Assembly: GCA_041738615.1 (NCBI GenBank)
Contig: JBGSPL010000003.1
Span: 114,352-178,351 of the forward strand
From: Patescibacteria group bacterium
Lineage (GTDB): Bacteria > Patescibacteriota > CPR2 > UBA1875 > CAIMLA01
DNA: 64,000 bases
Direction of reading: 5' to 3'
The position numbers and the translations under genes are program-made. Below, piece by piece: positions 9,424 through 49,562 of this stretch. The notes under the pieces are model-generated. The model ran no database searches, was not told the origin of the DNA, and saw only the letters and a list, made by a program, of their open reading frames with translations. Every line of letters begins with the position of its first letter. Position 1 is the stretch's first letter.

Positions 9424-9468
9424 ACGTTTCTCCTTCCTATAAAATATACGCTAAATCCTATACAAAAA

Positions 9469-9506
9469 CAAAAATGAGGCATCCAACAAGTTGGAAACCT
9501 CATTTT
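9469..9506 (-). terminator. Hairpin AAAAATGAGGcatccaacaagttggaaaCCTCATTTTT following tRNA-fMet
   Basis: 10-bp stem flanked by A5/T5; reverse complement copy at 10319-10358. Confidence 0.55.
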
Positions 9507-9581
9507 TGGTAGCGGGGGTAGGATTCGAACCCACGACCTTCGGGTTATGAGCCCGACGAGCTGCCACTGCTCCACCCCGCG
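9507..9581 (-). tRNA. Initiator tRNA-fMet (CAT)
   Basis: CGCGGGGTGGAGCAG...TCGGGCTCATAACCCGA (three G:C pairs in anticodon stem)...GGTTCGAATCC...ACCA; closely resembles canonical bacterial initiator tRNA. Confidence 0.85.
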
Positions 9582-10243: not shown

Positions 10244-10318
10244 GGCTGCGTAGCTCAGGGGTAGAGCAGCAGACTCATAAGCTGTTGGTCGGTGGTTCAA
10301 ATCCACCCGCAGCCACCA
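10244..10318 (+). tRNA. tRNA-Met (CAT), elongator-type
   Basis: GGCTGCGTAGCTCAGGGGTAGAGC...anticodon loop CTCATAA...GGTTCAAATCC...CCA. Confidence 0.85.
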
Positions 10319-10358
10319 AAAATGAGGTTTCCAACTTGTTGGATGCCTCATTTTTGTT
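10319..10358 (+). terminator. Hairpin terminator after tRNA-Met; inverted copy of the 9469-9506 element
   Basis: AAAAATGAGGtttccaacttgttggatgCCTCATTTTT. Confidence 0.55.
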
Positions 10359-10367
10359 TAGAAAATG

Positions 10368-12887: not shown

Positions 12888-12913
12888 TATATACCAAGCT
12901 ATAAATATCGTAA

Positions 12914-12983
12914 AACGCGAAAGGACCGGAGTCCCAGCTCGCGTTGCACCGAAGTGCTAGCGAACCGGAACCCGGTCCTCGTT
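12914..12983 (-). repeat. 70-nt structured repeat element copy 1 (terminator-like, 3' of island D gene D1); identical to 13754-13823
   Basis: 100% identical 70 nt; on minus strand forms GGACCGG...CCGGTCC outer stem with inner GCAC-UUCG-GUGC hairpin, followed by TTTCGCGTTTTA. Confidence 0.8.
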
Positions 12984-13025: not shown

Positions 13026-13568
13026 CTAGAAGCTCTTGAGCTTCTTCTGGAGATCTTTGATTGCGTTGAGGGTCTCCGTGTCCTCGCCCTCGTTGTCGCC
13101 GATGTTCTCGGCGCTGACAACGTACTTGGCCAAACGGTTGATACGTGTCTCGATGGCTTTGCGGGGAAGGTCCCGCCCTTCGACCATGTCGTAGAGCATC
13201 GGGATGACGTTGTCACCGAGATTGCCGTACGCGTAGCCTTGGGCATCCTTGCCCGTGAGACGATCTTCGTAATCCTTCATGGCGTCGTCGAAGTTCACGA
13301 GCAATTGCTTCGGGTTGGCTACCAAGTTCAACTGGTAGAGCTGGTCGTCCTGCTTGACGATCTCCTCCTGGAGAGCGTCGGCGCGCTCGGACTGGGCGTC
13401 GAGTTGCTCCTGAACGGACTTGTACTCGGCCTGGAGCTTCGCGAGTTCCTTACCCTGCTGGATAGCGACCTGGGCCGTCGTCTCGCTCTTGGCCTGCATC
13501 TTGAAAGCAGTGCCGAAGGCGAGTACGAGCAATGCACAGACAACTATCAACGCAAAGATCTTCCTCAT
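13026..13568 (-). CDS. Island D gene D1: secreted coiled-coil hypothetical protein (180 aa from MRKIF)
   Basis: GC-rich; signal peptide MRKIFALIVVCALLVLAFG; RBS GAGAGGGGA 7 nt before ATG. Confidence 0.5.
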   Translation of the reverse strand: MRKIFALIVVCALLVLAFGTAFKMQAKSETTAQVAIQQGKELAKLQAEYKSVQEQLDAQSERADALQEEIVKQDDQLYQLNLVANPKQLLVNFDDAMKDYEDRLTGKDAQGYAYGNLGDNVIPMLYDMVEGRDLPRKAIETRINRLAKYVVSAENIGDNEGEDTETLNAIKDLQKKLKSF

Positions 13569-13709
13569 TTGAGATCCCCTCTCATCGAGCCCCATCGGGG
13601 CCTATTCCACTTGTTTTCGCCGGCGGCGACAGCTGATCACGATGTTCGTGAGCAATTGTCGCCGTGGCGATAGATTCAAGGTGCAATTCTTGATTTCTCA
13701 AGACAGACT

Positions 13710-13737: not shown

Positions 13738-13753
13738 GTGTTTTCTACGCTAT

Positions 13754-13823
13754 AACGCGAAAGGACCGGAGTCCCAGCTCGCGTTGCACCGAAGTGCTAG
13801 CGAACCGGAACCCGGTCCTCGTT
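13754..13823 (-). repeat. 70-nt structured repeat element copy 2 (3' of island D gene D2)
   Basis: Identical to 12914-12983; about 25 nt downstream of D2 stop. Confidence 0.8.
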
Positions 13824-13846: not shown

Positions 13847-14155
13847 CTACCCCCGCTGGAAACCCTGGAAGACGTCCTGAAGCGGACCAGGCACGTTCTG
13901 CAACGAACCGCCTGCGCGGCAGAACTTGGCAGCGTAGTTCGTGACGGTCTCGACGTCGTTGACGTCGCAATCCAGAGGAACACTGCCGATGGTGTCAAGG
14001 TTGCGCTCGAGCTGCTCAAAGGCAACATTCACCGGAATTCCGCCGTGCGGGACGTACTGGAAGCCGTTCTCGGTCATGATCTTGAAGACCGCGCCCATAA
14101 GGGCAAGAACCTTCAACTCATGACGTTCCGTGCCAACCTGCTGATCGCGTGCCAT
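13847..14155 (-). CDS. Island D gene D2 hypothetical protein (102 aa from MARDQQ)
   Basis: GC-rich; AAGGAG RBS 7 nt before ATG 14155. Confidence 0.45.
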   Translation of the reverse strand: MARDQQVGTERHELKVLALMGAVFKIMTENGFQYVPHGGIPVNVAFEQLERNLDTIGSVPLDCDVNDVETVTNYAAKFCRAGGSLQNVPGPLQDVFQGFQRG

Positions 14156-14171
14156 TGTTCGCTCCTTCGTG

Positions 14172-14489
14172 TTAGAGTGTCGCCTCGAGGGCGGCGCGTA
14201 CCTGATAGAGCTTCTTCTGGTTGCGCTGGCCGATCGGGCTGTGCGGGTCGATAACGAAAACCGACTTGACCACCTTGACGATCGGGCTGTCCGCTGAACC
14301 GGCATGGACCTTGGCCGTGAACTTCACGACTTCGGACTTGGCCGGTGCGGCCACGACATCAGGCAACTTCGGGAGATGACCCCGGTTGCTGCCCTTGACG
14401 ATCGGCGCCTTGGTGGCACCTCTGCGAGGCGTGTTGCCACGACGTTCGCGAGCACGCTTGACCTTCTTGGACTCGGTAGGCTTTCCCAC
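14172..14489 (-). CDS. Island D gene D3: small basic hypothetical protein (105 aa, GTG start)
   Basis: Lys/Arg-rich N-terminus; RBS GAGGGGAG 6 nt before GTG. Confidence 0.45.
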   Translation of the reverse strand: MGKPTESKKVKRARERRGNTPRRGATKAPIVKGSNRGHLPKLPDVVAAPAKSEVVKFTAKVHAGSADSPIVKVVKSVFVIDPHSPIGQRNQKKLYQVRAALEATL

Positions 14490-14937: not shown

Positions 14938-14989
14938 ATTGTTTACTGCAAACTATAGACACTATGGTCAACAGTTTGCAGTAAACAAT
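14938..14989. promoter_or_regulatory. Perfect 17-bp inverted repeat ATTGTTTACTGCAAACT-N18-AGTTTGCAGTAAACAAT in D4 leader (operator or RNA hairpin)
   Basis: Each arm is itself a near-palindrome (GTTTAC-T-GCAAAC); lies between promoter at 15025-15053 and the RBS. Confidence 0.6.
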
Positions 14990-27740: not shown

Positions 27741-28097
27741 TTAGTGAAACATCACATAGCCCACAAAGACTGCGCCGCTAGTGACTGCACTGATAGAGTT
27801 TACGATTGCCAGCGGCTTGTCCTTATAGAAGAAGCCATAAACGGCCCAACAGATGGAGACCATGGAGTACCCCGCCCAAGTAATCGGCGAAATCCCAGCT
27901 ACCGCCTTGGTCGTGAAGATATGAAATATTTGGACGCTCGTCATTACTGGACCAAAGGTGCCGATAGTAGCCATCGCCCTGTCTATTTTCTTTACCGAGT
28001 TCTTGTTTTGTCTATGCTTCTCAAAATATTTGTCGTGTACCGCAGTCATCATTTTTCTTAGCCTAGTCAAAACTTTTCTCCTCGTTGGCACACGCAA
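27741..28097 (-). CDS. Small membrane protein (3 TM)
   Basis: 118 aa, basic N-terminus then three hydrophobic helices. Confidence 0.45.
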   Translation of the reverse strand: MRVPTRRKVLTRLRKMMTAVHDKYFEKHRQNKNSVKKIDRAMATIGTFGPVMTSVQIFHIFTTKAVAGISPITWAGYSMVSICWAVYGFFYKDKPLAIVNSISAVTSGAVFVGYVMFH

Positions 28098-28212
28098 AAA
28101 TATGCGTCTGCCCTGTTATAAAATAAAGTAATTATTGCTCGACTAACCCAACACGACTCCTGCCGAACGCTTTTCGTAGACTATTTTAGCATTTCTACGT
28201 AGAGGTATCAAT

Positions 28213-28776
28213 CTAAAGTTTCTGCAGGGCTTCCTGAATCCCGATGTAACCGACTTCTGCGTCCCTGATGCACTCAGGAAAGGTCAATATAGCTTTTTTC
28301 TGATCAAATTTGTGGAGAACATATTTCTTAGCCTCCTCCTTGCTATAACCTCGCGAGAGCAAGTCGTCGTAATACACGCTTAATTTATCCCATGTGATAA
28401 ATTTGTAGCATTCGGCATTCTTCATAACTTCTGCTACCAAGCTATTTGGTTTCCCTGATTTGTGGTGGTCTCGAATCGCTTCCAAAATAGTCATTTGTTG
28501 CTCTTCTGGACAGCCCCAACTATCCAAATACTTTTCGGCCATGATGGCGCTGAGATCAGGGTGGTTCTTTTGGATTTCGCCTCCAACCTGCTTATCGAAA
28601 CAAATATGTGCTAAATAAAGTGCGGCCAGCACTGTTTCGGTATCCACCCCATATTTTTCCGACAGCTCCTCTCCTTTCGCGGTAGCCGTCTCTGTGAGCT
28701 CCCAAACAGGTGCCCCATTTTCTACTGTCATTTGACGCATGAGCTCTCGGGATTTCTTTACTAGGTTCGTCATACT
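28213..28776 (-). CDS. Hypothetical alpha-helical protein (start probably MTNLVKK)
   Basis: Longer ORF (to 28830) would overlap upstream gene by 55 nt. Confidence 0.45.
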   Translation of the reverse strand, partial: SMTNLVKKSRELMRQMTVENGAPVWELTETATAKGEELSEKYGVDTETVLAALYLAHICFDKQVGGEIQKNHPDLSAIMAEKYLDSWGCPEEQQMTILEAIRDHHKSGKPNSLVAEVMKNAECYKFITWDKLSVYYDDLLSRGYSKEEAKKYVLHKFDQKKAILTFPECIRDAEVGYIGIQEALQKL

Positions 28777-29242
28777 AGTAACCTTTCGGTGGTTTAGTTT
28801 TCTTGTCCGGTTTCTGTAGATCCAAGGCATCTAGCTGCCGCATTATTTCAGCGACCTCTAGCGCTACCGTTTGCGAGTGCAAACCACGAGCTTCAAGTAT
28901 ATTGTTTACTTCCTCTAGGGTTTTGTCGAAATTGTTCTTATTCTTCTGATTTATGTCTTTCCAAGCGATGTTTGCTAGCGCCTCGGCCGTCTCTTCGTGA
29001 TGCGGCACGATGCCCTTTGCAAAGAGAAATGATATTGCTGGGTAACCCAAGTACCCTGCAAAGAATGAGGCATTATCATTGGCATATATCTGCATAGTCT
29101 CTGGATTGTAACTAATGGTGTAGAATTTGCCGCGCGAAGAAGAATAGAGCTTCGCAGCGTCCCCTTCTATCTCTAGACGTCCATCGCCGATAGCACCAAG
29201 GGCTTCGTATATTTTTATTACTGGAGGCATTGGCCATTTCAT
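28775..29242 (-). CDS. Hypothetical protein
   Basis: 155 aa. Confidence 0.45.
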   Translation of the reverse strand: MKWPMPPVIKIYEALGAIGDGRLEIEGDAAKLYSSSRGKFYTISYNPETMQIYANDNASFFAGYLGYPAISFLFAKGIVPHHEETAEALANIAWKDINQKNKNNFDKTLEEVNNILEARGLHSQTVALEVAEIMRQLDALDLQKPDKKTKPPKGY

Positions 29243-29323
29243 AACCCTATTATACCGTATTATTTGCTTTGGGCGTCACTCAGCTTGCTTTACCCGCCTT
29301 CCTACTCATGGTATAAATAAGTT

Positions 29324-30370
29324 ATGAATGCAAAAAGCTTTATCAAATATCTGGGGATTATCACAATCTACGTACTGATTATGGCAGCCATCTTCAAGGC
29401 AGCCAACGTGCTCGGGATGATTGGCGCAGCAGTGCTCGTTACAATCGTGCTAGATCCCATCGTCGGCAGTATCCAAAAAGGTATGCCTAGAAAATCCCGA
29501 GGTCTTGCCATCCTTATTACATTACTCATGCTTGCTGCTGTTCTTGGGGTTTTTGGCTATATTCTCTTCATCCCTCTCGGTTCGGAGCTGTCAAAGCTAG
29601 TGACTGCCATTTCCAATCATCTAGCAAAGAATCAGGCGTCTGACATTGAGTTTCTAAAATCAAACCTAAACATTACCGATATTCAGAATATGCTGGTCGC
29701 AAATGCGCAAAAGATTCTAACTACTTCGATAGATATCACTGTAACCGTTGTGGGCAACATAGGTTCACTGATTCTGACCTTAATCACAATCATTACTATG
29801 TCTTTCTTTATGCTGATAGATACCCAGAAGATCCTCGGATACGGGAGCCATTTGCTACCGGGAAAATATCAAAAAGTTTACCGTCGATTGACTGGTGAGC
29901 TATACGGAATCACTACAAAGTACTTTGGCGGTGTATTGATAACCTCTATGATTGCGGGTCTATCTGCCTTTATCCCGCTCTTCTTTGTACACGCAGAGTA
30001 TCTCATCTCTCTAGCGTTTATCGTAGCCATCATGGACATGGTACCACTAATCGGCGCTACCATCGGGGCTGTAATTGTAATATTGGTGCTGGTGCTTACG
30101 GGGAATCCTATCGGTGCCCTCATCATGGGCGCGTACTTTCTCGCCTACCAACAGGTCGAGAATAACATCGTGATCCCTTTTGTTCAGAAGAATAACGTCA
30201 AACTATCACCTCTGGCAATATTGATTGCTCTGCTACTCGGGATATCACTTGGTGGCTTAGTGGGTGCGCTACTTGCTATCCCTGGCGCTGCGTTCATCAA
30301 GGTTGTCTTTATCGCACTACAAGAAGAGGGCCTGATCTACAAGGCGCCCGAGGACTCAGAAACTTCCTAG
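29324..30370 (+). CDS. AI-2E family transporter (PerM/YhhT-like)
   Basis: 348 aa, 8 TM, characteristic loop YQQVENNIVIPFVQ. Confidence 0.8.
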   Translation: MNAKSFIKYLGIITIYVLIMAAIFKAANVLGMIGAAVLVTIVLDPIVGSIQKGMPRKSRGLAILITLLMLAAVLGVFGYILFIPLGSELSKLVTAISNHLAKNQASDIEFLKSNLNITDIQNMLVANAQKILTTSIDITVTVVGNIGSLILTLITIITMSFFMLIDTQKILGYGSHLLPGKYQKVYRRLTGELYGITTKYFGGVLITSMIAGLSAFIPLFFVHAEYLISLAFIVAIMDMVPLIGATIGAVIVILVLVLTGNPIGALIMGAYFLAYQQVENNIVIPFVQKNNVKLSPLAILIALLLGISLGGLVGALLAIPGAAFIKVVFIALQEEGLIYKAPEDSETS

Positions 30371-30406
30371 CTACTATAGGGGTTCGGTGTATTCTAGAAC
30401 TAAATT

Positions 30407-30787
30407 CTAACGATATAAACACTCATACGGTGCTTCCCAGCTGGGAGGCGCACCGACTGGAGGCGTACAAACGTCCGTATTTATGTCATTCTTCACTGGT
30501 ACTTCATCGGCATCTACGGAGCAAACCCAACCGTTTCCAGACCCTGGCATAGAGGCCTGCCCATTATCTTGCTTTCGGGTTGGGACCAATCCTTCGCAGC
30601 ACTTTTTCTTGTCACAATCAACACAAGAGCCCCCTAGCTCCTCACCCTCCAATAGGCACTTAGTGCTTACCTTATTGTTACGCCAAGTTGTAGTTCCAAC
30701 ATAAACTAGTACCCCGGCTAGGACAACGACGACGAGTATAGATAAATATATTATGTCTTTTTTGTTCATACAGATACTATAGCACAA
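30407..30787 (-). CDS. Small secreted Cys-rich protein
   Basis: 126 aa, signal anchor, 12 Cys. Confidence 0.5.
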   Translation of the reverse strand: MCYSICMNKKDIIYLSILVVVVLAGVLVYVGTTTWRNNKVSTKCLLEGEELGGSCVDCDKKKCCEGLVPTRKQDNGQASMPGSGNGWVCSVDADEVPVKNDINTDVCTPPVGAPPSWEAPYECLYR

Positions 30788-31005
30788 ACAAAAATAATGC
30801 CTACAAAAAGCATTATCTTATATTTTGGTGGGCCTGGTATCAAATAATTTACACCTTATCTTAGAAGAGACTAGCCGCTGGCGAACCATTCTTAGTATTG
30901 AGTATGAGAGATATAAGCTTGAAAGGAGTTACGCTCCCTTGTGTTAGTTGCACTAGTGATTACTAGTAATTCTCCACGTAGGGTCGGCGTAGAAAAAGTA
31001 AAACT

Positions 31006-31428
31006 ATGTCATTAGCAGATAGGTTCCACCCAACAAAATATGATGAGAGGTACATACACTTTGCTTTATGCGTGAGTAGTATGGACACTGTCGCTGCTGC
31101 CCTTGATGAACTATACAACAAAGGCTATTCGCCTGGTAACAAGATTGGGAGAGTTAAAAATGAAACCGAGGCTGAACATCTACTTGAGATACTCAATACC
31201 CCCGGAGCGCTTACCTGTGTCCTAAACGTAAAGGGACTAGAAGCACAGTGGCCAAGATTTGAGTACATTAAGTCCAACCTAACAGGCTATATTTACTACT
31301 TTTTATGTAGTGACTGTGGCAAGAGAGTAAAGTTTCTCTACCACACTAACTCGAGTTATGGGTATAAGTGCAGAGACTGTCAGAGGCTTCGATATCCTCC
31401 AAACAAGAAGTACCTATATAACCTATAG
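31006..31428 (+). CDS. Hypothetical protein with C-terminal zinc ribbon
   Basis: CSDCGKRV...CRDCQRL. Confidence 0.45.
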   Translation: MSLADRFHPTKYDERYIHFALCVSSMDTVAAALDELYNKGYSPGNKIGRVKNETEAEHLLEILNTPGALTCVLNVKGLEAQWPRFEYIKSNLTGYIYYFLCSDCGKRVKFLYHTNSSYGYKCRDCQRLRYPPNKKYLYNL

Positions 31429-31677
31429 GTCCTCGAGCATCACTGACAGATCAACCTTCATCGCTTTTGACATTCTCCACACAGTATAAACACTCGGCGA
31501 GTACCTTCCCGTTTCTATGTGTCCAATGTAGGCGCTGTCATACCCAGCAGCTTCTGCTAACTTTTCCTGAGTAAAGCCATTCGCCTTTCGAACTTCCTTA
31601 ATTCTTAAGCCTATCTTCTTAGCGAAGTCTTTCTTCTGCTTGGCCTTTTCTAAAATATCTAAATCTCTAAACTCCAT
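31423..31677 (-). CDS. XRE-family helix-turn-helix transcriptional regulator
   Basis: 84 aa; FTQEKLAEAAGYDSAYIGHIETGRYSPSVYTVWRMSKAMKV. Confidence 0.8.
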   Translation of the reverse strand: MEFRDLDILEKAKQKKDFAKKIGLRIKEVRKANGFTQEKLAEAAGYDSAYIGHIETGRYSPSVYTVWRMSKAMKVDLSVMLEDL

Positions 31678-31743
31678 AACAAGATTATCGGTGTATTCGT
31701 AGATAATTCTTATGGCGTAGACATAGACTTTTCACATAATAAG

Positions 31744-32124
31744 TTGTATATTTTGCCTATGAGTAAAACAAAGTACTACAGTTACGTTTTTGTGGGGATA
31801 CTGTTAGGCGCTATGGCGGGACTACTCTTCACGTTCGTTAAGGTGAACTACTTTGAGAAAACAAAAAGCGGAATGTTTGCTGTACACAAAGAGTGTGTCC
31901 AGTGGAATGAAGCCTGTATCGACGCGTGCGAAGACTCTCGCGACGACGTTCGGGGCGGTAGCTGTAGTAGTTGCTGCATATTAGAAGATGACGTTGTAGA
32001 AACCCTTGGAGACCGACTTTCTTCAGAAGCAAAACTATACGGCCTTGTCTTTGCTTTTGGCCCTGGCTTACTTGTGGGGCTTGGACTAGCAGAAGATAAG
32101 AGAAAAAGGATAGAAAATGTTTAA
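31744..32124 (+). CDS. Hypothetical small membrane protein
   Basis: 126 aa. Confidence 0.4.
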   Translation: MYILPMSKTKYYSYVFVGILLGAMAGLLFTFVKVNYFEKTKSGMFAVHKECVQWNEACIDACEDSRDDVRGGSCSSCCILEDDVVETLGDRLSSEAKLYGLVFAFGPGLLVGLGLAEDKRKRIENV

Positions 32125-32302
32125 ACAAATGGATCGCTCAAGAAAGTTTGAGTTGTTTATAGGTATTCCTATAGGAGTTACCCTTATCAACATACTTAAA
32201 CCTGGTGCCCTAATAGCAATGGGGATATTTCTATTGTTCTTCTTTGGTGCCGGCCTTATTGGAGCCATAACAGACAAGGACCAGGATGAAAAAGCCAAAT
32301 AA
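32117..32302 (+). CDS. Hypothetical small membrane protein
   Basis: 61 aa, overlapping start/stop with neighbours. Confidence 0.35.
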   Translation: MFKQMDRSRKFELFIGIPIGVTLINILKPGALIAMGIFLLFFFGAGLIGAITDKDQDEKAK

Positions 32303-32525
32303 ACAAGCGCTAGATGATCTCTACGAGTTTGGGCTTGATTTGTTCAGTAACGAACCAACAACTAAACCGTACAATATTGACTACAAGCCAGGTTACGGAC
32401 CAAATGGGAGCGCTCTTCAAAGACTCTTGCATCGCTGCTTAATGGGTCTTATAGTTATCGCTTTTCTGGCGGTTCCTGTTATTACCTTGCTGGGTATTTG
32501 GGCGCTACTGACGAGGTTACTTTAA
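32286..32525 (+). CDS. Hypothetical small membrane protein
   Basis: 79 aa. Confidence 0.35.
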   Translation: MKKPNKQALDDLYEFGLDLFSNEPTTKPYNIDYKPGYGPNGSALQRLLHRCLMGLIVIAFLAVPVITLLGIWALLTRLL

Positions 32526-32562
32526 TTTGCTTATGGCTTGTCAAAGGGATTAAAATATAGCT

Positions 32563-32889
32563 ATGACAAAAATGTTAGAAGAACTATCTAAAGACTTCGT
32601 GCCGAAAACGCCCCTAGGGCATATTTGGAATATAATTCTTAGTTTTTTTGCCCTAAGTATTCACCTTTCGATAGCTGTATTCGTTATGAAAGCCTTCGCA
32701 CAGAGAGTTTATATGACCGACCTGGATAGTCTTTACCTCGTCTGGTTTTGGCTGCCCTGGGTGGCCTTTGCTGTGTGGGTACCGATTGGGATAAAATTGA
32801 AGAAAATCAAACACCCAGTTTTAACCTCATTCGCAGTAGTTATTTGGTTAATTGCATGGTTCGGTGGACTAGTTTCGGCGGTACAGTAG
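32563..32889 (+). CDS. Hypothetical small membrane protein
   Basis: 108 aa, 3 TM. Confidence 0.4.
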   Translation: MTKMLEELSKDFVPKTPLGHIWNIILSFFALSIHLSIAVFVMKAFAQRVYMTDLDSLYLVWFWLPWVAFAVWVPIGIKLKKIKHPVLTSFAVVIWLIAWFGGLVSAVQ

Positions 32890-32939
32890 AGGTGAATGAC
32901 CACTAGTCATAGTGGAAAGAAATTGTTTTCTCTGTTATA

Positions 32940-33959
32940 ATGACGAATATGAAGGAAGTTAATGTGGCCAAAGAAAAAATAACTGACCTAATAAAAGAAC
33001 TCGAAGTTGAAAGAAAATCAAAAGTTATCGTCTTTATTACGGGCGATAAACAGCCAAACGAACAGTTTGGAACTCAGGTCCACCCTGAGCAGTTGGTTTT
33101 CTTCCGCAAAACTCTTGAAGATATGGGTTCGACTGATAAGATATCACTTGTTTTAGACACTAGGGGTGGAGCTCTTGAAATGCCTTGGCCACTAGTAAAC
33201 CTAATAAGAGAATACTGTAAACGATATGAAGTTATCATTCTAGAAAAGGCACTAAGTGCCGGAACGCTAATCGCTTTAGGCGCCGATAAGATCGTTATGC
33301 AGCCATTCTCACACTTAAGCCCAGTTGACCCTGCTACTTTTATTCCCAATGGCAACCCTAATGTTCTAGAAAAGCTTGAGATAGAAGACATTATAGGTTT
33401 CATCGACTTCGCAAAAGAAAAGGTTGGCATAGCCGAACAGGCAGCTCTTTCAGACGTTATGAAGGAACTAACTAAGCAGATTAAACCGACACTCTTAGGC
33501 TCGGTTAACAGAACATACGCCCTCATAAGAAAGCTTGCTAGACAGCTACTGTCCCTGCACGGAAGCAAACTCACCGAGAAACAAGTCAATGAGATTACAG
33601 AGCACCTGACCCAGAAGCTTTACTCCCACAGTTACCTGATTAACAGGAAAGAGGCAAAAGAGATTATAGGCTTCGGTAATATTATTGAGAAATCTACTGG
33701 AAAGACACGTGAAATATCAACAAAGATAATGGACTACTACAGAGACCTGATGGATGTTGATAAAGAGTTTAACCCACCGGCTTTACTTGCAGACAAAGAG
33801 ACTGTTGACTACTCGGTCGTAGCAGCTGTGGTCCAAAGTTCAGCAAAGAAGTTCTCGTTTACAAACAAACTTAGACTTACCAAAATATCCGACCCTTCAG
33901 GAAGACTAAATATTAACTTAGAAGTCATCGAGAGAAAATGGTTAGAGGAAAAAGAATAG
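32940..33959 (+). CDS. SDH-family (ClpP/crotonase-fold, S49-like) serine protease
   Basis: 339 aa; VFITGDKQ...LVLDTRGGALEM...SAGTLIALGADKIVMQPFSHLSPVDP. Confidence 0.6.
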   Translation: MTNMKEVNVAKEKITDLIKELEVERKSKVIVFITGDKQPNEQFGTQVHPEQLVFFRKTLEDMGSTDKISLVLDTRGGALEMPWPLVNLIREYCKRYEVIILEKALSAGTLIALGADKIVMQPFSHLSPVDPATFIPNGNPNVLEKLEIEDIIGFIDFAKEKVGIAEQAALSDVMKELTKQIKPTLLGSVNRTYALIRKLARQLLSLHGSKLTEKQVNEITEHLTQKLYSHSYLINRKEAKEIIGFGNIIEKSTGKTREISTKIMDYYRDLMDVDKEFNPPALLADKETVDYSVVAAVVQSSAKKFSFTNKLRLTKISDPSGRLNINLEVIERKWLEEKE

Positions 33960-34186
33960 GAGTAACTATGTTTAGTACTTGTAACACTGTGTGCGCGTCT
34001 AATAATAAAGTCCTTACTTTCAGAAGTTCGACTGCAAATGGTAAAGTCGAAACACATTATAATGTTATTGAGCCTTATATTATAAGCAAAACTAATATCG
34101 TCAATAATCAATCGGCCACCGAAGAGATGGACAATGATTTTGATGTGAAGATTAACAAACAATTTTTTCAAACAAAGAATATTTAG
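33938..34186 (+). CDS. Hypothetical protein
   Basis: 82 aa, overlaps protease stop. Confidence 0.3.
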   Translation: MVRGKRIGVTMFSTCNTVCASNNKVLTFRSSTANGKVETHYNVIEPYIISKTNIVNNQSATEEMDNDFDVKINKQFFQTKNI

Positions 34187-34189
34187 TAA

Positions 34190-34693
34190 ATGTACATTCC
34201 TAGCAGAGAAATTGATAAAACCATATTTTATCAAGGGGATGTTATAAAGAACTTCCCCTTTTTTGTTTTGTCTGAGCTTGAAGAAAAAGTAGCTGCCATA
34301 AAAGAAGCTGGCGAGGGTACAATTGAAATTAAATCGAAGCTAGTTGACGTTATGATACTTTCTCAAACCTGCGATATCCAACGCCGAGACCAAGTCATCG
34401 TAGCTCCAATAGCTTCAATGGCATCTGGGGTAGAGAGCGGTGAATTGAAAGCAAACATACTGGATAATATCCGTGGGCGAAAAATCAACTTCCTATTTTA
34501 CCTCCCTGAAAGCCCTGATCTTATCCCAGAGTCTTACTGTAATCTTCAGCTCATCTACTATGTTTCTCCTGCGTTACTAAATAGTTTTGCAGACAATAAA
34601 GCAGTTACGCTAAGCGATTGGGGAAGACACCACCTTAGCTGGGCCCTCAGTAATTACTTTGGACGCCCAATAATTAGCAAGGTAAGGGACTAG
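34190..34693 (+). CDS. Hypothetical protein
   Basis: 167 aa. Confidence 0.45.
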   Translation: MYIPSREIDKTIFYQGDVIKNFPFFVLSELEEKVAAIKEAGEGTIEIKSKLVDVMILSQTCDIQRRDQVIVAPIASMASGVESGELKANILDNIRGRKINFLFYLPESPDLIPESYCNLQLIYYVSPALLNSFADNKAVTLSDWGRHHLSWALSNYFGRPIISKVRD

Positions 34694-35049
34694 TCTTTTG
34701 ACTTTAGTGGGGATGGTTTGATATAATATAGCTACAATTTGATTTTCGAAATGAGGTGTCCTGCGTGATCGCGTGGGCATTTTTTAATTTCGAGAGGCGT
34801 TGTGTGGGTCAAGGGCTAAACAAAACTGATTATGAGACACTTGAGAATGAGCAGGCGGAGGCCTGGGCCAGTCTGCTCTATTCTATGTTCCGCAAGAAGA
34901 AACAACGTGAAGCTTTGCAAAGCCCTGGAGGTAATAATATAATGGTATTGGACACAAATAACGACGAAGCAAGAAGGCAGTGATGGCAGTCTCTTATTCC
35001 TTGTCGTTAAGGAGTGTCCAGAGGCTGCCATCTTTGTTAGGAGTATTCT

Positions 35050-36635
<1,586 letters not shown>

Positions 36636-43655: not shown

Positions 43656-43684
43656 TTTCTCATGTCCTTTGTGCCGAGTACTAT

Positions 43685-44089
43685 TTAGTTTAGCCCGTGA
43701 TCGTGGAAGCAGTCGGCATAGGCCTTGTCTACTGTGATTATATGGTTGGTGAGCCAGCTCTTCATGAAGTCCATGACCTTCATCGCATATTCGTCTTCTT
43801 GCCCAACATAATTCTGCTGAAAATCTGCCACTGTGTCACGGAACTTTTGGTGAACTCCCTTGTGTGAAGCCGAGTCGGGATAGTCAAACTTGTCAAAGTA
43901 TTTCTCTTCGGTTGCAAAGTGGTAGTTCGCATAGGCCGCAAGCTGGTCTAAAATATCGCCAAGGATAATTTCTTCGCTCCCTACCTCTACCGTGTCGTAT
44001 AAATCGTTGATAAGTAAGACGAACTTTTTATGTTGCTCGTCTATCTCGGCGACTTCTACTTCATAATCTGGTAACCAATTGATGTACAT
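43685..44089 (-). CDS. Hemerythrin-like metal-binding protein
   Basis: 134 aa; H/E/D ligand spacing (IDEQHK..., HF..E, H..F, H.D). Confidence 0.7.
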   Translation of the reverse strand: MYINWLPDYEVEVAEIDEQHKKFVLLINDLYDTVEVGSEEIILGDILDQLAAYANYHFATEEKYFDKFDYPDSASHKGVHQKFRDTVADFQQNYVGQEDEYAMKVMDFMKSWLTNHIITVDKAYADCFHDHGLN

Positions 44090-44276
44090 AAATACATTTT
44101 ACAATATTTTCTACCACTAGCGCTAGTTAATATGAATAATATTGTTGAACAAATGCCGACCTCAAGCTATAATTACTGCGAAGCTATGTGCTTGGTCCCT
44201 TTACAGATCATTCGCACGGAGGGGCTGAGTACGAAAACCTATACGAATTTTCGAATCCAACTTGTTGGGAATTTTT

Positions 44277-44331
44277 TATATACCCTACCCTGCTTTTTCT
44301 GATATTCATAAAGGGAAGGGTAGGGTATATA
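44277..44331. promoter_or_regulatory. Perfect 15-bp inverted repeat TATATACCCTACCCT-N25-AGGGTAGGGTATATA upstream of island F gene F1
   Basis: Exact reverse complements; AT-rich junction at left edge of GC-rich island. Confidence 0.55.
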
Positions 44332-44437
44332 AGCGACAAGCCGAGGAGGCGAGACGGAGTTGAGAGGTGTACCGTTCTTTTATCAAGACTTGGTTTCGCC
44401 AGCCGGCGAACAGGGTCCCGGAAAGGGGGCGAAAGGT

Positions 44438-46615
44438 ATGTTCTGCGAATCCGCTGACAGTATCACGGTCGGGAAGCGTTCCTTCAGCTTGAGCTACAAG
44501 ACGAACCAAGGGATCATTGCTCTTCTGGAAGGCGCCGAAGGTCCGATGTCTCCGGGAGACAAGAAGAAAGCATACGACTTCATGGATCAGCGGCGCCAGG
44601 AACTCCTTACGCGCCTCGATGACCTCTTCTCAGAAGAGGCTTTCATGAAACTCCAAACGGAGGCTATGAGGCTTCTGCTCACCAATCCCAGCTACAAGGA
44701 GGAAAAGGCAGTAATCTGCCAGATTCTCGGCAACGAGCTCTGGACGATCTACGGCTCATTCGTCAACGGCCGCTACCCAACCCAGATACTCCAAGGACAC
44801 GACGACTCCATCGGCAAACTGGCCAAGGAAACGGAGCATCACAAGCTCGAGATGGTCTACAACCTTCTGGAGCTATGCTACGTGGTGGTCCTGCACATTG
44901 CCGGTATGCACCTGAAGACCGAAGGTGTCATGAGTGAGTGCCACTGTTGGCCTACGCTTCCTCTGAACACCTGGGTTGCAGGGGAGGTCAAAAGCCGTTG
45001 CAATGGTGTGAAGTCACTCCTGGCAAAACGTCGCTATGACCCCAAGGGTTTCCAGTCGGAGCACATTCCTAAGAGCAGCTCCAATGGAACTCGTGGACAC
45101 AAGCGCGCTGCACTTCCGCCTGCAGAGCTCCCCTACGAAGATGGGGATGACGACAGCGATGTTGTCGGCTCGCAAGAAGAAACACTCGACGGCCTCGAAC
45201 TTGAAACCGACTTTGAAGGTCATGACGACGCCGACGATGTATCACCAGCAGAACCCGAGACCGTACACGAACCTGCTGTGGTAGCGAATGTCGAGAAACC
45301 ATATCAGCTAGGTTTCGAGACGGTTCCGCAGGAGTTTCGTGACCACTTTCTGGAAGTACTGAAGTGCACCGATGGTGTCGATGGAGAGCATCCGCTCTCT
45401 ATACACCGCAAGCAGCTGAGCGAGGCGGCGCGGTCTCACCTCCCCGAAATGGGAGTAGCAGGGCTCGTGGTGCCAAACCGCACTGCTGCGCCTGAACCGT
45501 TCCGCCTGTGGTTCACTCTTGCTCCGGAGTACGAAGATCTCATTACAGAGGCTCAATCTGGATCTCTAGACCCATCCATCGAAGCCAAGGAGGCACCGAC
45601 CATGGGTAAGCGGCAACGTCCAGTGCTAGAAGTACTGGCACTGATTCCCGACGACCTGAAGACGTCCGTCGAGGACTGCCTTCGTTGCATCAAGCGACAC
45701 GAGGCTCCCTACAACATCGTGAAGGGGGACCTTGCGGAGAAGACGTTCGGAGACATTCCCAAGCTCCTTGAGCTGGGAATTCTCCGCGGGGCGGGGCAGC
45801 ACAGCCTCTCTTCCCCCTTCACCGCGCTCGTGAAGCCGTACCAAGGAGGACACCTCAAGGGCATGGTCTATACCGGGCCTGCGCAGGAGTCGTCCCCGGC
45901 ACCTGAACCGCCCAGTGTTCCCTCTGCAACGAGCGGCCCCGACGCGAAGTTCCGTCCCGGTGGCAGACGGCCACCGCAGCTGGGCATCGATTCCGTTCCC
46001 GAAACAGCTCGCGAGCTGTTTGTACGGATCATAAAGGTCGCAGAATCTCCGGACGCTATCGTCACCGGACAGCGGCGAACAGGCCTCTTCCACAAGACCG
46101 ATCTTCGGAACGCCGACGCAGCAAGGCTTGTCGAGCTTCTCGACCTAGGACTGCTGCGCTACACCCAGTCCAGCTACCAGTGGCACGTCAAGTCCGAGTA
46201 CTTCGACTTGATCCGCGAAGCCCAGCAGGGCAAGCTGGACTACATCCTCGAGGGCTCTCCGGCAGAACCGACTGGCGCACCCTCGCCCCCGAATCAGGGG
46301 TCCGAGCCCACACCGCCGGTCCCGACACCACCGGCAGGAGCGGGGATCGGGGGCAACCTGGTTCCCTGCACATCTCTTCCTGAATTCGGAGGACTCCAGT
46401 TCGGACTCACACCTGAACTGGTGCTGGTTCTCATAGGACTCAGTGACGTCCAGTTCAATGAGGAGGGCCAGCTCGTGGTCATCTCCAACAACGTCACGGA
46501 CGAGGTTGGCTGGAACGACGAGCTCGTGAGTGAGCTTCTCGCCACCGGTGCGCTACGCTGCACTGATGCGGCTCTTTGCTTCGGGCTCGTCATCGACGCC
46601 AAACTCACCCTCTAG
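44438..46615 (+). CDS. Island F gene F1: large acidic hypothetical protein with three ~85-aa internal repeats (start uncertain: TTG 44360 or ATG 44438)
   Basis: GC-rich; RBS AAAGGGGGCGAAAGGT-ATG; repeats (T/S)VP(Q/E)xxR(D/E)xF...EY(E/F)DLI(T/R)EAQ(S/Q)G(S/K)LD. Confidence 0.5.
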   Translation: MFCESADSITVGKRSFSLSYKTNQGIIALLEGAEGPMSPGDKKKAYDFMDQRRQELLTRLDDLFSEEAFMKLQTEAMRLLLTNPSYKEEKAVICQILGNELWTIYGSFVNGRYPTQILQGHDDSIGKLAKETEHHKLEMVYNLLELCYVVVLHIAGMHLKTEGVMSECHCWPTLPLNTWVAGEVKSRCNGVKSLLAKRRYDPKGFQSEHIPKSSSNGTRGHKRAALPPAELPYEDGDDDSDVVGSQEETLDGLELETDFEGHDDADDVSPAEPETVHEPAVVANVEKPYQLGFETVPQEFRDHFLEVLKCTDGVDGEHPLSIHRKQLSEAARSHLPEMGVAGLVVPNRTAAPEPFRLWFTLAPEYEDLITEAQSGSLDPSIEAKEAPTMGKRQRPVLEVLALIPDDLKTSVEDCLRCIKRHEAPYNIVKGDLAEKTFGDIPKLLELGILRGAGQHSLSSPFTALVKPYQGGHLKGMVYTGPAQESSPAPEPPSVPSATSGPDAKFRPGGRRPPQLGIDSVPETARELFVRIIKVAESPDAIVTGQRRTGLFHKTDLRNADAARLVELLDLGLLRYTQSSYQWHVKSEYFDLIREAQQGKLDYILEGSPAEPTGAPSPPNQGSEPTPPVPTPPAGAGIGGNLVPCTSLPEFGGLQFGLTPELVLVLIGLSDVQFNEEGQLVVISNNVTDEVGWNDELVSELLATGALRCTDAALCFGLVIDAKLTL

Positions 46616-46633
46616 CGCCACAGGCGCTAGAAC

Positions 46634-46690
46634 CAAGGGGCTACCTGCACAGCACTCGAGAGAGTGGCTGCCTGCTGGTAGCCCTCTTTC
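46634..46690 (+). terminator. Long-hairpin terminator copy 1 (GGGGCTACC...GGTAGCCC CTCTTTC) after F1
   Basis: ~85% identical to 47312-47367. Confidence 0.6.
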
Positions 46691-46700
46691 TTTACCTATA

Positions 46701-46736
46701 TATAGCCTTTACACGAAGGCTATATTGTGGTACAAT
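46701..46736 (+). promoter_or_regulatory. Promoter TTTACA-N17-TACAAT for F2 with overlapping 9-bp inverted repeat TATAGCCTT-N6-AAGGCTATA
   Basis: IR 46701-46724 overlaps -35 (46708-46713); -10 at 46731-46736. Confidence 0.5.
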
Positions 46737-46782
46737 ACTGCACGAAACTATGTACCTGTCAGCAACCGACCAAGGGGGATCC

Positions 46783-47304
46783 GTGAATTGCACGTTGCAA
46801 GTCGCCACCATCGTACTTCTTGCGATGCTCGAGGCAGACAAGCTGCCTATCGAGATGATTCCTGACGAGTTTGAGTACGAGATTTACCTGATTGCGCGTG
46901 AGCACGCTCTTACAACCCAGAACTACGAGTTCGCTCTCCATCTCTCCGAGAGTAGAGAGCGTTCACGCTGGATCAAGGAAACCAACGGAGACCGACTGAT
47001 AGTGATATGGGAAGCTCTCGGTTGGGTCGAGGTCGGATTCCATAGTCCGTTCTGGTCCGGCAAGAAGCGCTATGTCCTCCCGCGCCAATACCGCTCCTAC
47101 CCACCATGCGAAAAGCGTGAAATGGACGAAGCGGAGTTGGATCAAGCGCTAGAACAGGCCCGTGAGAGCCTGTCCAAGGGCTATCGCATCACGTTCTCGA
47201 GAGGCTGCTCGCGCGAAACAGCCTGGCGTTTGTTCGAAGCCGGGTTGGTATCCTGCAACCCGCCGAGACAGCCCAACATGGTTCTCGCACCTGAATGCCG
47301 CTAG
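46783..47304 (+). CDS. Island F gene F2 hypothetical protein (~173 aa from GTG 46783; alternative ATG 46753)
   Basis: RBS CAAGGGGGATCC-GTG; upstream promoter; ORF open from 46576 but that region holds F1's terminator. Confidence 0.4.
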   Translation: MNCTLQVATIVLLAMLEADKLPIEMIPDEFEYEIYLIAREHALTTQNYEFALHLSESRERSRWIKETNGDRLIVIWEALGWVEVGFHSPFWSGKKRYVLPRQYRSYPPCEKREMDEAELDQALEQARESLSKGYRITFSRGCSRETAWRLFEAGLVSCNPPRQPNMVLAPECR

Positions 47305-47311
47305 GCGGCAA

Positions 47312-47367
47312 CAAGGGGCTACCCGCACAGACTCGAAGAGAGGCTGCCTGCTGGTAGCCCCTCTTTC
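47312..47367. terminator. Long-hairpin terminator copy 2 after F2 (shared with convergent VanW gene)
   Basis: Divergent copy of 46634-46690. Confidence 0.6.
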
Positions 47368-47379
47368 GTATCTACTTAA

Positions 47380-49098
47380 TTAGTGCGGATATTTATCGGG
47401 ACTGTCATACTTGCTTGTAAACTTATCGTTGTCCGTGAGTTTACCTGCTGCATCTAAGATATGTCGGTAAAAGGTGGCTGTGAATGATTTCGGTCCGCGC
47501 GCCTCCTGCTCCGTAATGCTCGAGGTAACCTGTTCGACCGTATCAACCTGACCAGTCGCATCGGCATTACCCGAGAAAGAAACCTTACCTGGCTTCTTGG
47601 TGCCATAAAAGTCAAAGTAAACCATATTCCCCACTACGCTAGTCTGTATCAGAATATAATGGCCAGTATCGTTTTTGAACCGGAGGTCTGGAGTCGGTAG
47701 ATAAATCGTGGCATCCACGCCGTACGGTTTGTAATACACAATCGGATAGGCATGATTGTGCCTCTCTAGTATCGGCAGTCCTGCATTTAGCGCCGCACGA
47801 AAGGCAGTTGATGATACCTGGCAAAGTCCGCCTCCGTACTCTGGCACTGTTTTATCGGCAAGGATTACGAGCTCTGGCAAGTACCCAGTACTTGCCTCTA
47901 CTGGCCCTAGGATACTATTGAAGGAAACATCTTCGTCCGGCTTTATGAGGACGCCGTTGAACTTACTAGCCCCCGTCTTGTAATTGTGCTGCCGATTTAC
48001 AGGCGAGCCACTGGCATCAGTCCAACCACGAGAAATTTGCTCGGTAAGACCCAGTTCAGCCATATTTGCCTCACTTACGCTCGGGTTCTTCGCAGAGAGA
48101 GCAAGCTTTACGGCGTGAGTATCCTTTACTGCAGACTGAATGTCATTGATTAGCCTCGTAGTATCGAGCTCTTGCCCCACCACAGAGGGACTCTTTACCA
48201 CCATCTTGCCGTCTACATTGTCTAGAACCACGTTCGCTGCTGCCCTGTTTACCTTCGCAGCGACATCCTTCGCATAAGTGTAGACCATATTCTGATCTAG
48301 ATAGTAGTAGCCATCATCCTCGCGGGGCAATAATGTCGGTAGTTCTACCATTGTAGTTGCGGCTACAGGAGTGATTTTGAGCCATTTACGAAGGTTTTCG
48401 GTGCCAATCTGCTCCTCTTTACCCCCAGACACACTCACTGGGCGCTGCAATGCCTGCTGTACGCTCACTACGAGTGCTGAGGCATCGTTTGCGGTCAACA
48501 TCGGTGAGATAGGGGCAATACGAAGGTTGATAGTGCTAGCGAGCCTAGATAGGCCCTCACGGAGGGCTACACGACTCTCGGGAAGTAACAACCGCTGCCC
48601 GCTCTTCTCTGGAGCGATAATCCCATTTTCCAAGTTTGTAATCTTAGCATCTTCGGGGGCAATAGCTAGCGCATCATATCTCTCGAGAAGCGTATTGCTC
48701 ATGCCTTCGTCATTGTACGTAAGGTCCGCATTGTGACTCATACCGAGGTACTTGGAAAGCCCAAAGTACCCTCTTTCTTCGCGTGCAAGCGCCTCAACTA
48801 GGGTTTCTTCTACCTTCAGCTCCTTCACAAAGCTAGAAACAGATTTATCCTGGCCAGAAACACTAACCTCGACTGCCGAATACTGCTTCCAGCGCTGCTC
48901 GAGCAGTGTCTTCGCGTCTGCCTCGGTCTTGCCCGATACAACGACCCCTGAAATCTCGCTACCTAGTGCAAAACGGTGCTCAAAAACGATTGGTTGTAGT
49001 ATCACGAGCACCAGGTAAGCCCCAAAGGTAATACCAAAAGCGGCCACGACCCTAGGAAGTAGCCGAGATTTATCCACTTTACTAGTACCCCCTACCAT
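47380..49098 (-). CDS. VanW/YoaR family protein with N-terminal TM
   Basis: 572 aa; VanW motif PEYGGGLCQVSSTAFRAALNAG. Confidence 0.8.
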   Translation of the reverse strand: MVGGTSKVDKSRLLPRVVAAFGITFGAYLVLVILQPIVFEHRFALGSEISGVVVSGKTEADAKTLLEQRWKQYSAVEVSVSGQDKSVSSFVKELKVEETLVEALAREERGYFGLSKYLGMSHNADLTYNDEGMSNTLLERYDALAIAPEDAKITNLENGIIAPEKSGQRLLLPESRVALREGLSRLASTINLRIAPISPMLTANDASALVVSVQQALQRPVSVSGGKEEQIGTENLRKWLKITPVAATTMVELPTLLPREDDGYYYLDQNMVYTYAKDVAAKVNRAAANVVLDNVDGKMVVKSPSVVGQELDTTRLINDIQSAVKDTHAVKLALSAKNPSVSEANMAELGLTEQISRGWTDASGSPVNRQHNYKTGASKFNGVLIKPDEDVSFNSILGPVEASTGYLPELVILADKTVPEYGGGLCQVSSTAFRAALNAGLPILERHNHAYPIVYYKPYGVDATIYLPTPDLRFKNDTGHYILIQTSVVGNMVYFDFYGTKKPGKVSFSGNADATGQVDTVEQVTSSITEQEARGPKSFTATFYRHILDAAGKLTDNDKFTSKYDSPDKYPH

Positions 49099-49319
49099 TA
49101 GTCCCTCGCTAGTAACTCGTTGATTACCGTCTTTGCTAGCGCTTCTCTATCCTTGCGAGCATCCTCGTCTCTTTTGGCTACCAGCACTAAAACATCGCCC
49201 TCTTTACTGTGCTCAGGAAGCTTCTCCTTGGGCCAGAGTATTTGCTCTCCATGATGGGTAAGTACGGCGTAATCCCCCTCGAAGCGGTCTATAGTAGTTT
49301 TAAGTTCGTTAATAGTCAT
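49098..49319 (-). CDS. Small hypothetical protein (DUF3006-like), co-transcribed with VanW gene
   Basis: 73 aa, stop/start overlap. Confidence 0.45.
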   Translation of the reverse strand: MTINELKTTIDRFEGDYAVLTHHGEQILWPKEKLPEHSKEGDVLVLVAKRDEDARKDREALAKTVINELLARD

Positions 49320-49382
49320 GATTACATTCTATATCAACTAGTACTTAATTCCAAACGAAGCAATTAATTACAAAATGCAACG

Positions 49383-49411
49383 CGCCCCGGGTCCTGAAAC
49401 GGAACCGGGGC
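49383..49411 (-). terminator. Island G terminator CGCCCCGG...CCGGGGCG followed by T-rich on minus strand
   Basis: 8-bp GC stem, 14-nt loop. Confidence 0.55.
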
Positions 49412-49439
49412 GGTTGTGTTGCTTGTTGTGCGCGACCTA

Positions 49440-49562
49440 GATGTCGACGAGGGTGGCCCAATCGGTGGGCACCGCATCTACATCTGAGGGAGTAATGTCG
49501 ACCGACTCACTGTCGACAGTGACACTATCCTGTGGGCTCTTGTCATCGGCGGCCATGTGGTT
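49440..49562 (-). CDS. Island G micro-ORF (40 aa, acidic)
   Basis: Perfect AAGGAGG RBS 11 nt before ATG; downstream of G1 in same orientation; short, so tentative. Confidence 0.3.

Follow-up and report, generated by a model that had tools for sequence, protein, structure and literature searches.

A variable GC-rich island in a Patescibacteria genome with two orphan genes in probably separate transcription units

Overview of island F

Island F is a 3.3-kb GC-rich insert with two genes of unassigned function, F1 and F2, in a 64,000-nucleotide stretch of a Patescibacteria group bacterium genome (assembly GCA_041738615.1, contig JBGSPL010000003.1, positions 114,352 to 178,351). This whole stretch is called the window below, and coordinates are counted from its first base. 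With a probability of roughly 0.6, we consider island F to be an ordinary variable accessory region, compositionally atypical and confined to a single small lineage, with F1 and F2 as two separate single-gene transcription units and not a coupled system. We observed the anatomy of the island directly, together with the orthology of the F2 unit in a related genome, the absence of detectable F1 homologs, internal repeats in F1 and variability of the site. Both proteins are new families in a poorly sampled clade. The regulatory layout is an ordinary bacterial design, and a new mechanism is not indicated.

The island is flanked by core genes, with TilS, FtsH, MurJ, LepA and hemerythrin on its left and VanW, DUF3006, two Pro_CA_2 genes and the ATP synthase operon on its right. 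A related locus of about 20 kb (L001/L004, hereafter L001) was found in a metagenome-assembled genome of an uncultured Candidatus Saccharibacteria (GCA_964501135.1), where the gene order is TilS-FtsH-MurJ-LepA ... hemerythrin-F2-VanW-DUF3006. An independent Logan contig (L003) reproduces the window arrangement with 100% identity over 11,017 nt and no mismatches, and a second Logan contig (L002) reproduces the L001 arrangement; therefore, the layout of neither the window nor L001 is an assembly artefact. The two genomes are far apart at the DNA level, with synonymous sites saturated in most genes compared. Of the 11 shared genes compared, seven had a proportion of synonymous differences (pS) of 0.71-0.84; among them are F2 and, at 0.72-0.84, every large flanking core gene. 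In DUF3006, AtpC and AtpD, pS was 0.38-0.60. The LepA, FtsH and AtpD proteins are 97-98% identical. A literature search found no paper on the locus or on its source samples.

F2 is an autonomous transcription unit

The F2 unit has the following elements:
46708-46736, plus strand: F2 promoter, TTTACA-N17-TACAAT with TG (extended -10), from a consensus scan
46693-46732, plus strand: inverted repeat across the F2 -35 element, from a repeat search and folding; partly kept in L001
46783-47304, plus strand: F2 coding sequence, 173 aa, GTG start; the L001 ortholog has ATG at the aligned codon and 73-76% amino-acid identity

An earlier note on this DNA, made from the bases alone, had described F2 as an independently promoted gene of about 173 aa, with a TTTACA-N17-TACAAT promoter and a GGGGGA ribosome-binding site. 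Each of these features was recovered. The frame runs from GTG 46783 to 47304, GGGGGA lies at 46773-46778, 5 nt before the GTG, and the promoter hexamers are identical to those at 9927-9955 of L001. In L001, F2 stands alone between hemerythrin and VanW and has kept its extended -10 promoter, its Shine-Dalgarno sequence, its start position and its terminator. The region from the -35 element to the start codon is 88% identical between the two genomes, even though synonymous sites are saturated (pS 0.78 in F2). Because F2 occurs without F1 in L001, F2 is autonomous, and the two genes are not an obligate pair. The homolog searches that the earlier note proposed as a check on co-occurrence gave an F2 ortholog in L001, without F1, and no homolog of F1. 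Nothing was found to link F1 and F2 functionally; the two proteins are unrelated. Neither a distant paralogy of F1 and F2 nor a match of the F2 C-terminus to the repeat unit of F1 (described below) was significant.

The deposited F2 protein has 184 aa and begins at an in-frame ATG upstream, at 46750 (region 46750-46782). This codon is ACG in L001, whose own ATG aligns with GTG 46783, so the 173-aa model is the right one, and the annotated start is probably 11 codons too early.

An inverted repeat overlapping the F2 -35 element, noted before as 9 bp long, is also present. Its arms, TATATAGCCTT and AAGGCTATATT, match at 10 of 11 positions and span the -35 element. In L001 the arms are complementary at 9 of 11 positions, with one compensatory and two disruptive changes between the two genomes compared. 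The repeat could be an operator of F2.

The F2 protein evolves faster than its neighbours, with a nonsynonymous divergence (dN) of 0.215 compared with 0.10 for VanW and 0.013 for LepA. No family or solved structure matched it in Pfam, PHROGs, PADLOC, NCBIfam or the structure search. The L001 ortholog was its only homolog, with no further locus in GTDB genomes and none in IMG/VR, JGI metagenomes, plasmids or phages.

Paired predicted terminators and a 2.6-kb indel

A long hairpin follows each gene, and the first one marks the right end of a segment that differs between the two genomes:
46634-46690, plus strand: T1, hairpin terminator after F1, starting 19 nt after the F1 stop; from folding, a U-tract scan and alignment
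47312-47367, plus strand: T2, hairpin terminator after F2, starting 8 nt past the stop of F2 and lying between F2 and VanW, which are convergent
44107-46701, plus strand: segment of 2,595 bp, comprising the F1 leader, F1 and T1, in whose place L001 has 32 nt; from blastn

T1 and T2 had been proposed as divergent copies of one terminator with about 85% identity. We find that they match in 53 of 58 columns (91%). Their local alignment score was 85 compared with 12.1 +/- 2.2 for shuffled sequences, and nothing else in the 64 kb scored above 34. A search with 18-mers at up to three mismatches returned both copies and one unrelated site with three mismatches (0.16 expected by chance). By the shuffle scores and the 18-mer search, the similarity does not reduce to low-complexity GC sequence, the doubt attached to the original proposal, and T1 and T2 read as true paralogous copies. 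Each folds at -32.9 kcal/mol (z -3.7 and -3.1, respectively) and is followed by CTCTTTC, a tract interrupted by C. The sequences CTCTTTCTTT and CCTCTTTCGT after the stems pass the U-tract rule with 5 T in 8 bases. With the stem-loop and the U-tract of intrinsic terminators, both are predicted to terminate transcription.

Blastn aligned L001 9461-9888 with window 43679-44106 and L001 9921-12540 with window 46702-49324. The intervening 32 nt of L001 match the left part of T1 (CTA-AACCAAGGGG…CACAG…TCG), with a score of 24 compared with 12.9 +/- 2.2 for dinucleotide shuffles, none of which (0/1000) reached it. T2 is 93% identical to its L001 copy, T1 and the L001 copy are 87% identical, and T1 and T2 are 91% identical. 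Since a T1 relic persists in L001 and T1 is more diverged than the orthologous T2 pair, the T1/T2 duplication probably predates the split of the two lineages, and L001 probably lost an upstream gene. This suggests that, most simply, the gene lost was F1, and that the F1-T1 arrangement would be ancestral. A special sequence constraint on the hairpin, considered on account of the 93% identity, became less likely because another terminator in the window, at 49385-49422, is equally conserved across three genomes.

The 3' end of F1 has a further peculiarity. The F1 stop codon is the TAG at 46613, and a second in-frame TAG follows five codons on, at 46628 (region 46613-46630). When this region is aligned with the T2 and L001 copies, the F2 stop (CGC TAG) falls opposite TAG 46628 and not opposite 46613. 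Originally, therefore, the module duplicated at the 3' end may have started at the stop codon.

Hairpins at the ends of an indel also bring to mind a remnant of a mobile gene cassette, with the hairpins as recombination or transposition ends (attC, IS200/IS605, or like repetitive extragenic palindromes or miniature inverted-repeat transposable elements) and F1 inserted beside F2. The 2.6-kb indel against L001, with a hairpin at its right bound and a large hairpin near its left end, fits such an origin, as do the atypical composition and the paired near-identical hairpins that flank unrelated genes in island D, elsewhere in the window. We nevertheless regard it as very unlikely. No integron integrase or transposase was found among the genes within about 8 kb on each side, to which the scan was confined, and the genes within that distance are core genes; there are no tRNA or mobility genes at the island borders, and F1 and F2 match no family. 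On reading T1 and T2, the attC core sites RYYYAAC and GTTRRRY were not present in 46616-46706 or 47296-47385. Neither TnpA nor TnpB of the IS200/IS605 type lies between the hairpins, where F1 is the only open reading frame (ORF) of such size and matches no family. The T hairpin occurs only twice in the 64 kb, once in the approximately 20-kb L001 locus and not at all in JGI metagenome contigs, and the T1 relic in L001 favours a deletion there over an insertion in the window. The greater divergence of T1 than of the orthologous T2 pair, in turn, makes the duplication old. A search of IMG/VR for the hairpin as a mobile or dispersed repeat gave six 18-mer matches, all in unrelated coding sequence.

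F1 encodes an acidic orphan protein with three internal repeats

The coding features of F1 are as follows:
44438-46615, plus strand: F1 coding sequence, 725 aa, an acidic cytoplasmic orphan protein
44345-44362, plus strand: GGAGG and TTG, an alternative F1 start read from the sequence; TTG 44360 gives 751 aa
45293-45577, plus strand: repeat R1 (aa 286-380); R1 vs R3 Smith-Waterman score 101, z 16.5; profile domain matches
45608-45877, plus strand: repeat R2 (aa 391-480); R2 vs R3 score 58, z 7.0; alignment and profile matches
45962-46252, plus strand: repeat R3 (aa 509-605); repeat alignment and profile matches; helix-helix-helix-strand-strand in a low-confidence model

The open frame of F1 extends over 44360-46615, and its in-frame ATG at 44438 gives the 725 aa that the earlier note had estimated. 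The NCBI protein has this length, and the Logan gene call uses the TTG start (751 aa). GC at codon positions 1/2/3 is 0.66/0.42/0.66, a periodicity of the coding type. The protein has an isoelectric point of 4.9 and a net charge of -37. It contains long stretches of low complexity, acidic and proline-rich, and nowhere is it hydrophobic enough for a membrane-spanning segment.

Searches for relatives of F1 returned only F1 itself, both among 5.8 billion clustered proteins (word-based search) and among 1.84 billion representative proteins (phmmer). No homolog was found in IMG/VR, phage records or plasmid records, and no family or structure matched in Pfam, PHROGs, PADLOC, NCBIfam or the PDB. The earlier note would have been contradicted had F1 and F2 been widespread single-copy core genes; in the protein searches neither is widespread. 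No defence, phage, plasmid or mobile-element family matched F1 or F2 in PADLOC, Pfam, NCBIfam, PHROGs or the plasmid and phage records.

Residues 1-215 of the F1 protein form a helical N-terminal domain and residues 216-290 an acidic linker. Three repeats follow, with proline-rich linkers between them, and then a C-terminal region of 120 aa; the N-terminal 215 aa and the C-terminal 120 aa resemble nothing known. The repeats R1-R3 are three diverged copies of a unit of about 90 aa, with the consensus ...VPE..RELF..IK...G...DL....L.ELL.LGLLR...W.... The C-terminal region, tried as a fourth copy (R4), was not significant. R1 and R3 share 35% amino-acid identity, with pS 0.81, a proportion of nonsynonymous differences (pN) of 0.48 and a pN/pS ratio of 0.59. 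Because their synonymous sites are saturated, yet 35% of the residues are kept, the F1 protein has long been under selection. F1 thus has the marks of a genuine, old, translated gene, though an orphan.

It could still be asked whether F1 is functional at all, given that no homolog turned up anywhere searched, that the structure model has very low confidence, that acidic and proline-rich low-complexity stretches are long, and that the gene was lost in L001. F1 would then be a frame that happens to be open in GC-rich DNA, or a pseudogene in decay, leaving F2 as the sole real unit. We consider this highly improbable. By our own estimate, a random run of 751 codons with this base composition would contain about 26 stops. 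The coding-type GC periodicity, the protein similarity that the three repeats have kept over saturated synonymous sites, and the possession of its own Shine-Dalgarno sequence and terminator also contradict it.

Structure prediction, which had been proposed as a check on both proteins, was run with AlphaFold2 (AF2), but it gave unusable models, with a predicted local distance difference test score (pLDDT) of 37 for F1 (single sequence) and 47 for F2 (two-sequence alignment). At roughly even odds, and on weak evidence, the repeats R1-R3 may be winged-helix-like. The idea comes from their consensus and from the helix-helix-helix-strand-strand order in the poor F1 model. In a Foldseek search of the PDB with this model, winged-helix domains dominate the list, none significantly (best E 0.8, all >0.7), and neither the F1 nor the F2 model found anything at E <0.3. 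The best non-self profile match of the repeats among local ORFs was to a weakly MarR/ArsR-type protein, in register (E 0.17; hhalign probability 12%). No winged-helix family profile in Pfam, NCBIfam or the PDB matched the repeats, even at E up to 10. Like the tandem winged-helix proteins (MarR/ArsR-type; ScpB/MukE/JetB-type), F1 has three repeats of about 90 aa, and segments of its low-confidence model resemble a winged helix; unlike them, it has no significant sequence or fold match and is strongly acidic.

The F1 palindrome is probably an RNA element of a structured leader

Three features stand out upstream of F1:
44145-44173, plus strand: candidate sigma-70 promoter for F1, TTGAAC-N17-TATAAT, 10/12 in the consensus scan
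44188-44232, plus strand: stem-loop 1 of the putative leader of F1, close to where the mRNA is predicted to begin; from the leader fold
44276-44332, plus strand: 57-nt near-perfect hairpin with a perfect 16-bp outer stem, corresponding to the palindrome first noted before F1

The candidate promoter is the sole good promoter match upstream of F1. The putative leader of about 260 nt that would follow it is highly structured: 44180-44445 folds at -103 kcal/mol (z -5.2), and none of 200 shuffled sequences was as stable. It holds three strong hairpins, of which 44276-44332 is the largest. This is the perfect 15-bp inverted repeat seen previously, here found as a perfect 16-bp stem (44276-44291 with 44317-44332) within 27-nt arms that are 85% complementary and separated by a 3-nt gap. 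No other close-spaced inverted repeat in the window is as long, and the folding energy of the hairpin is -34.5 kcal/mol (z -6.0). Read from the sequence, both strands lack a T-run after it, which speaks against a canonical intrinsic terminator.

The description of this palindrome as operator-like was not supported. It is a 57-nt hairpin whose size and position are unlike those of a short operator dyad, and no promoter match overlaps it; the closest one ends at 44173, about 100 nt upstream. Because it lies within a structured leader, lacks a T-run, is unlike an operator and has similar leader palindromes elsewhere, we read it as an RNA element. Island D (14938-14989) and a 199-aa orphan gene of L001 have comparable palindromes, placed after the promoter and before the ribosome-binding site. 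The element would thus be a leader hairpin acting at the RNA level, in stability or translation control, not a DNA operator. A duplication of the F2 promoter and 5'-untranslated region (5'-UTR) as the source of the F1 upstream region was rejected: the score was 20 compared with 15.8 +/- 2.2, 29 of 500 shuffles did as well, and other parts of the window score higher.

The two palindromes also lend themselves to a reading in which F1 and F2 are a coupled two-gene module under one DNA-binding regulator (perhaps F1 or F2 itself) that binds both as operators; the pair could then be a regulator with its effector, a defence system or a toxin-antitoxin-like pair. Both inverted repeats are indeed real and strong, the F2 repeat is centred on the -35 element, and F1 may have winged-helix-like repeats. 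In addition, the arms of the F1 hairpin and of the F2 -35 repeat have TATATA(C/G)CC(C/T)T in common as their outer arms, and the four half-sites are confined to island F. We judge such a module unlikely, for L001 has F2 with the same promoter and without F1. The geometry of the repeats also differs (27-nt arms and a 3-nt gap compared with 11-nt arms and a 6-nt gap), and only the F2 repeat lies at a promoter match. Furthermore, the motif is not enriched over the window (6 matches compared with 2.9 expected), the outer arms of the F2 repeat are poorly kept in L001, and F1 and F2 have no PADLOC, Pfam or NCBIfam match.

Several points weigh against our preferred reading of two separate units. The F1 promoter is a 10/12 consensus match without an ortholog for comparison, and the scenario of a deletion in L001 rests on a 32-nt relic in a comparison of two genomes only. 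The shared TATATA(C/G)CC(C/T)T arms keep a common DNA-binding regulator alive, at low probability. The winged-helix assignment rests on non-significant matches and on models that are both unusable, and the strong acidity of F1 is unusual for a DNA-binding protein.

The LepA-VanW junction is a variable site

The gene next to the 3' end of VanW differs in each relative examined (L011-L015). In L011, whose VanW is 67% identical, it is a different GC-rich orphan; L013 has another gene; L012 and L014 have Pro_CA_2 and ATP synthase there, a rearrangement; and L015 has a TPR protein and an 1821-aa protein.

Two orphan genes absent from the window were seen at this junction. In L001, a GC-rich gene for 199 aa lies between LepA and hemerythrin (8739-9338, minus strand). 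Its promoter scores 11/12, and it also has a leader palindrome and a ribosome-binding site of the GGGG type. In L011, a GC-rich orphan of at least 151 aa occupies 7419-7871. The two proteins align collinearly, though their similarity is weak (23% identity, shuffle z 5.5, pairwise E 0.003). GC at third codon positions is 0.66-0.72 in these orphan genes, which makes them as GC-rich as island F, compared with 0.41-0.57 in core genes.

Island F has a GC content of 0.58 compared with 0.485 for core genes, and its dinucleotide distance of 87 is outside the range of 3-kb core chunks (45 +/- 12). F2 and its signals are old, and the composition therefore points to persistent, fast-evolving accessory genes that are differentially lost, not to recent transfer. 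A common donor for islands D and F was rejected, as their dinucleotide signatures are as distant from each other as from core genes.

A broader and rather improbable extension of these findings is that F1 founds a family of acidic tandem winged-helix-like proteins, and that the fast-evolving, GC-rich orphans F1, F2 and the 199-aa family (L001, L011) are lineage-specific self-contained modules. In each of them a strong promoter would be combined with a leader hairpin and with a long-hairpin terminator that is duplicated. At a few chromosomal junctions these modules would be reshuffled or lost in some lineages, and they would possibly serve host-bacterium or phage interaction.

Another variable region was seen at 29254-36546 of the window, where about 7.3 kb of lower GC (0.40-0.45) have no counterpart in L001; about 30 nt is all that separates the L001 flanks matching window 27877-29254 and 36546-36608.

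Proposed expression of the island and comparison with known systems

Taking island F as two separate units, F1 would most likely be transcribed from the promoter about 260 nt upstream, through the highly structured leader, and the 57-nt hairpin would act on the F1 mRNA in stability or translation control. T1 would end F1 transcription about 20 nt before the F2 -35 element and so shield the F2 promoter from read-through. F2 would be expressed from its own extended -10 sigma-70 promoter with a GGGG-type Shine-Dalgarno sequence and end at T2, which would separate it from the convergent VanW gene. In the presumed history, the T1/T2 duplication came first, and L001 later deleted F1 and kept the T1 relic.

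Stem-loops in the 5'-UTR that stabilise an mRNA or gate its translation are known, for example, from the E. coli ompA and B. subtilis aprE leaders. The F1 hairpins resemble such leaders in lying between a candidate promoter and the ribosome-binding site. Rfam had no match in or around island F, the F1 leader included. T1 and T2 share with intrinsic (Rho-independent) terminators, including bidirectional ones, a GC-rich hairpin 8-19 nt after the stop codon and a T-rich run, and T2 lies between convergent genes. Unlike the usual ones, they form long, compound hairpins of about 50 nt that contain an inner stem, have an interrupted U-tract (CUCUUUC) and are duplicated after two unrelated neighbours.

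High synteny with gain and loss of single genes has been described in Saccharibacteria (McLean et al. 2020, PMC7427843). Island F is like the strain-variable regions of Saccharibacteria and the candidate phyla radiation (PMC7427843) in that the core synteny (TilS-FtsH-MurJ-LepA ... VanW-DUF3006-ATP synthase) is kept while the genes at the LepA-VanW junction vary and are atypical in composition. It is unlike a recent horizontal transfer in that F2 and its signals are old residents, with saturated synonymous sites; the GC-rich composition has not drifted towards that of the host.

If the reading of separate units holds, F1 is genuine and old, carries a triplicated domain and has no relatives in current databases, the LepA-VanW junction is marked as a variable site in this Saccharibacteria clade, and the start codon of F2 is corrected. 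A recurring layout of accessory genes would also emerge in these reduced genomes, in which a strong promoter and a structured leader go together with one long hairpin terminator in paired copies. This layout could guide the choice of promoters and terminators for Saccharibacteria genetic tools, although its practical value is modest. The fast-evolving orphan proteins are flagged as candidates for host or phage interaction.

Island D and other sites in the window

Island D repeats the design of island F, as had been supposed. It has a leader palindrome and a pair of 73-nt hairpins (99% identical) that follow unrelated genes:
12911-12983 and 13751-13823, genes on the minus strand: compound hairpins of 73 nt, each just 3' of a gene (13026-13595 and 13847-14305)
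14938-14989, minus strand: leader palindrome with 23-nt arms, 91% complementary, between a TTGACA...TAGAAT promoter and ATG 14910; analogous to the F1 palindrome

A promoter of the TTGACAAAAC type follows the second hairpin copy, and the hairpin sequence differs from that of T1/T2. None of the relative loci fetched contained a copy of the island D hairpin.

An inverted duplication of 115 nt, 78% complementary, was found at 9466-9580 and 10245-10359. Each arm contains a tRNA-Met gene and a 19-bp hairpin, and a small gene and a tRNA-Lys lie between the arms.

The terminator hairpin at 49385-49422 (in 49372-49467), CGCCCCG...CGGGGCGGTTGTGTTGC, is kept nearly base for base in three genomes despite saturated synonymous sites. 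Adjoining it is an acidic ORF of 39 aa (49437-49556, minus strand), which is called in the Logan contig L003 and is diverged but alignable in L001.

Beside the left border of island F, the sequence TGTAAAAT at 44087-44104 (minus strand) is present in both genomes and ends 7 nt before the hemerythrin ATG, with no Shine-Dalgarno sequence evident. This suggests that the hemerythrin mRNA may be leaderless and transcribed from an extended -10 promoter.

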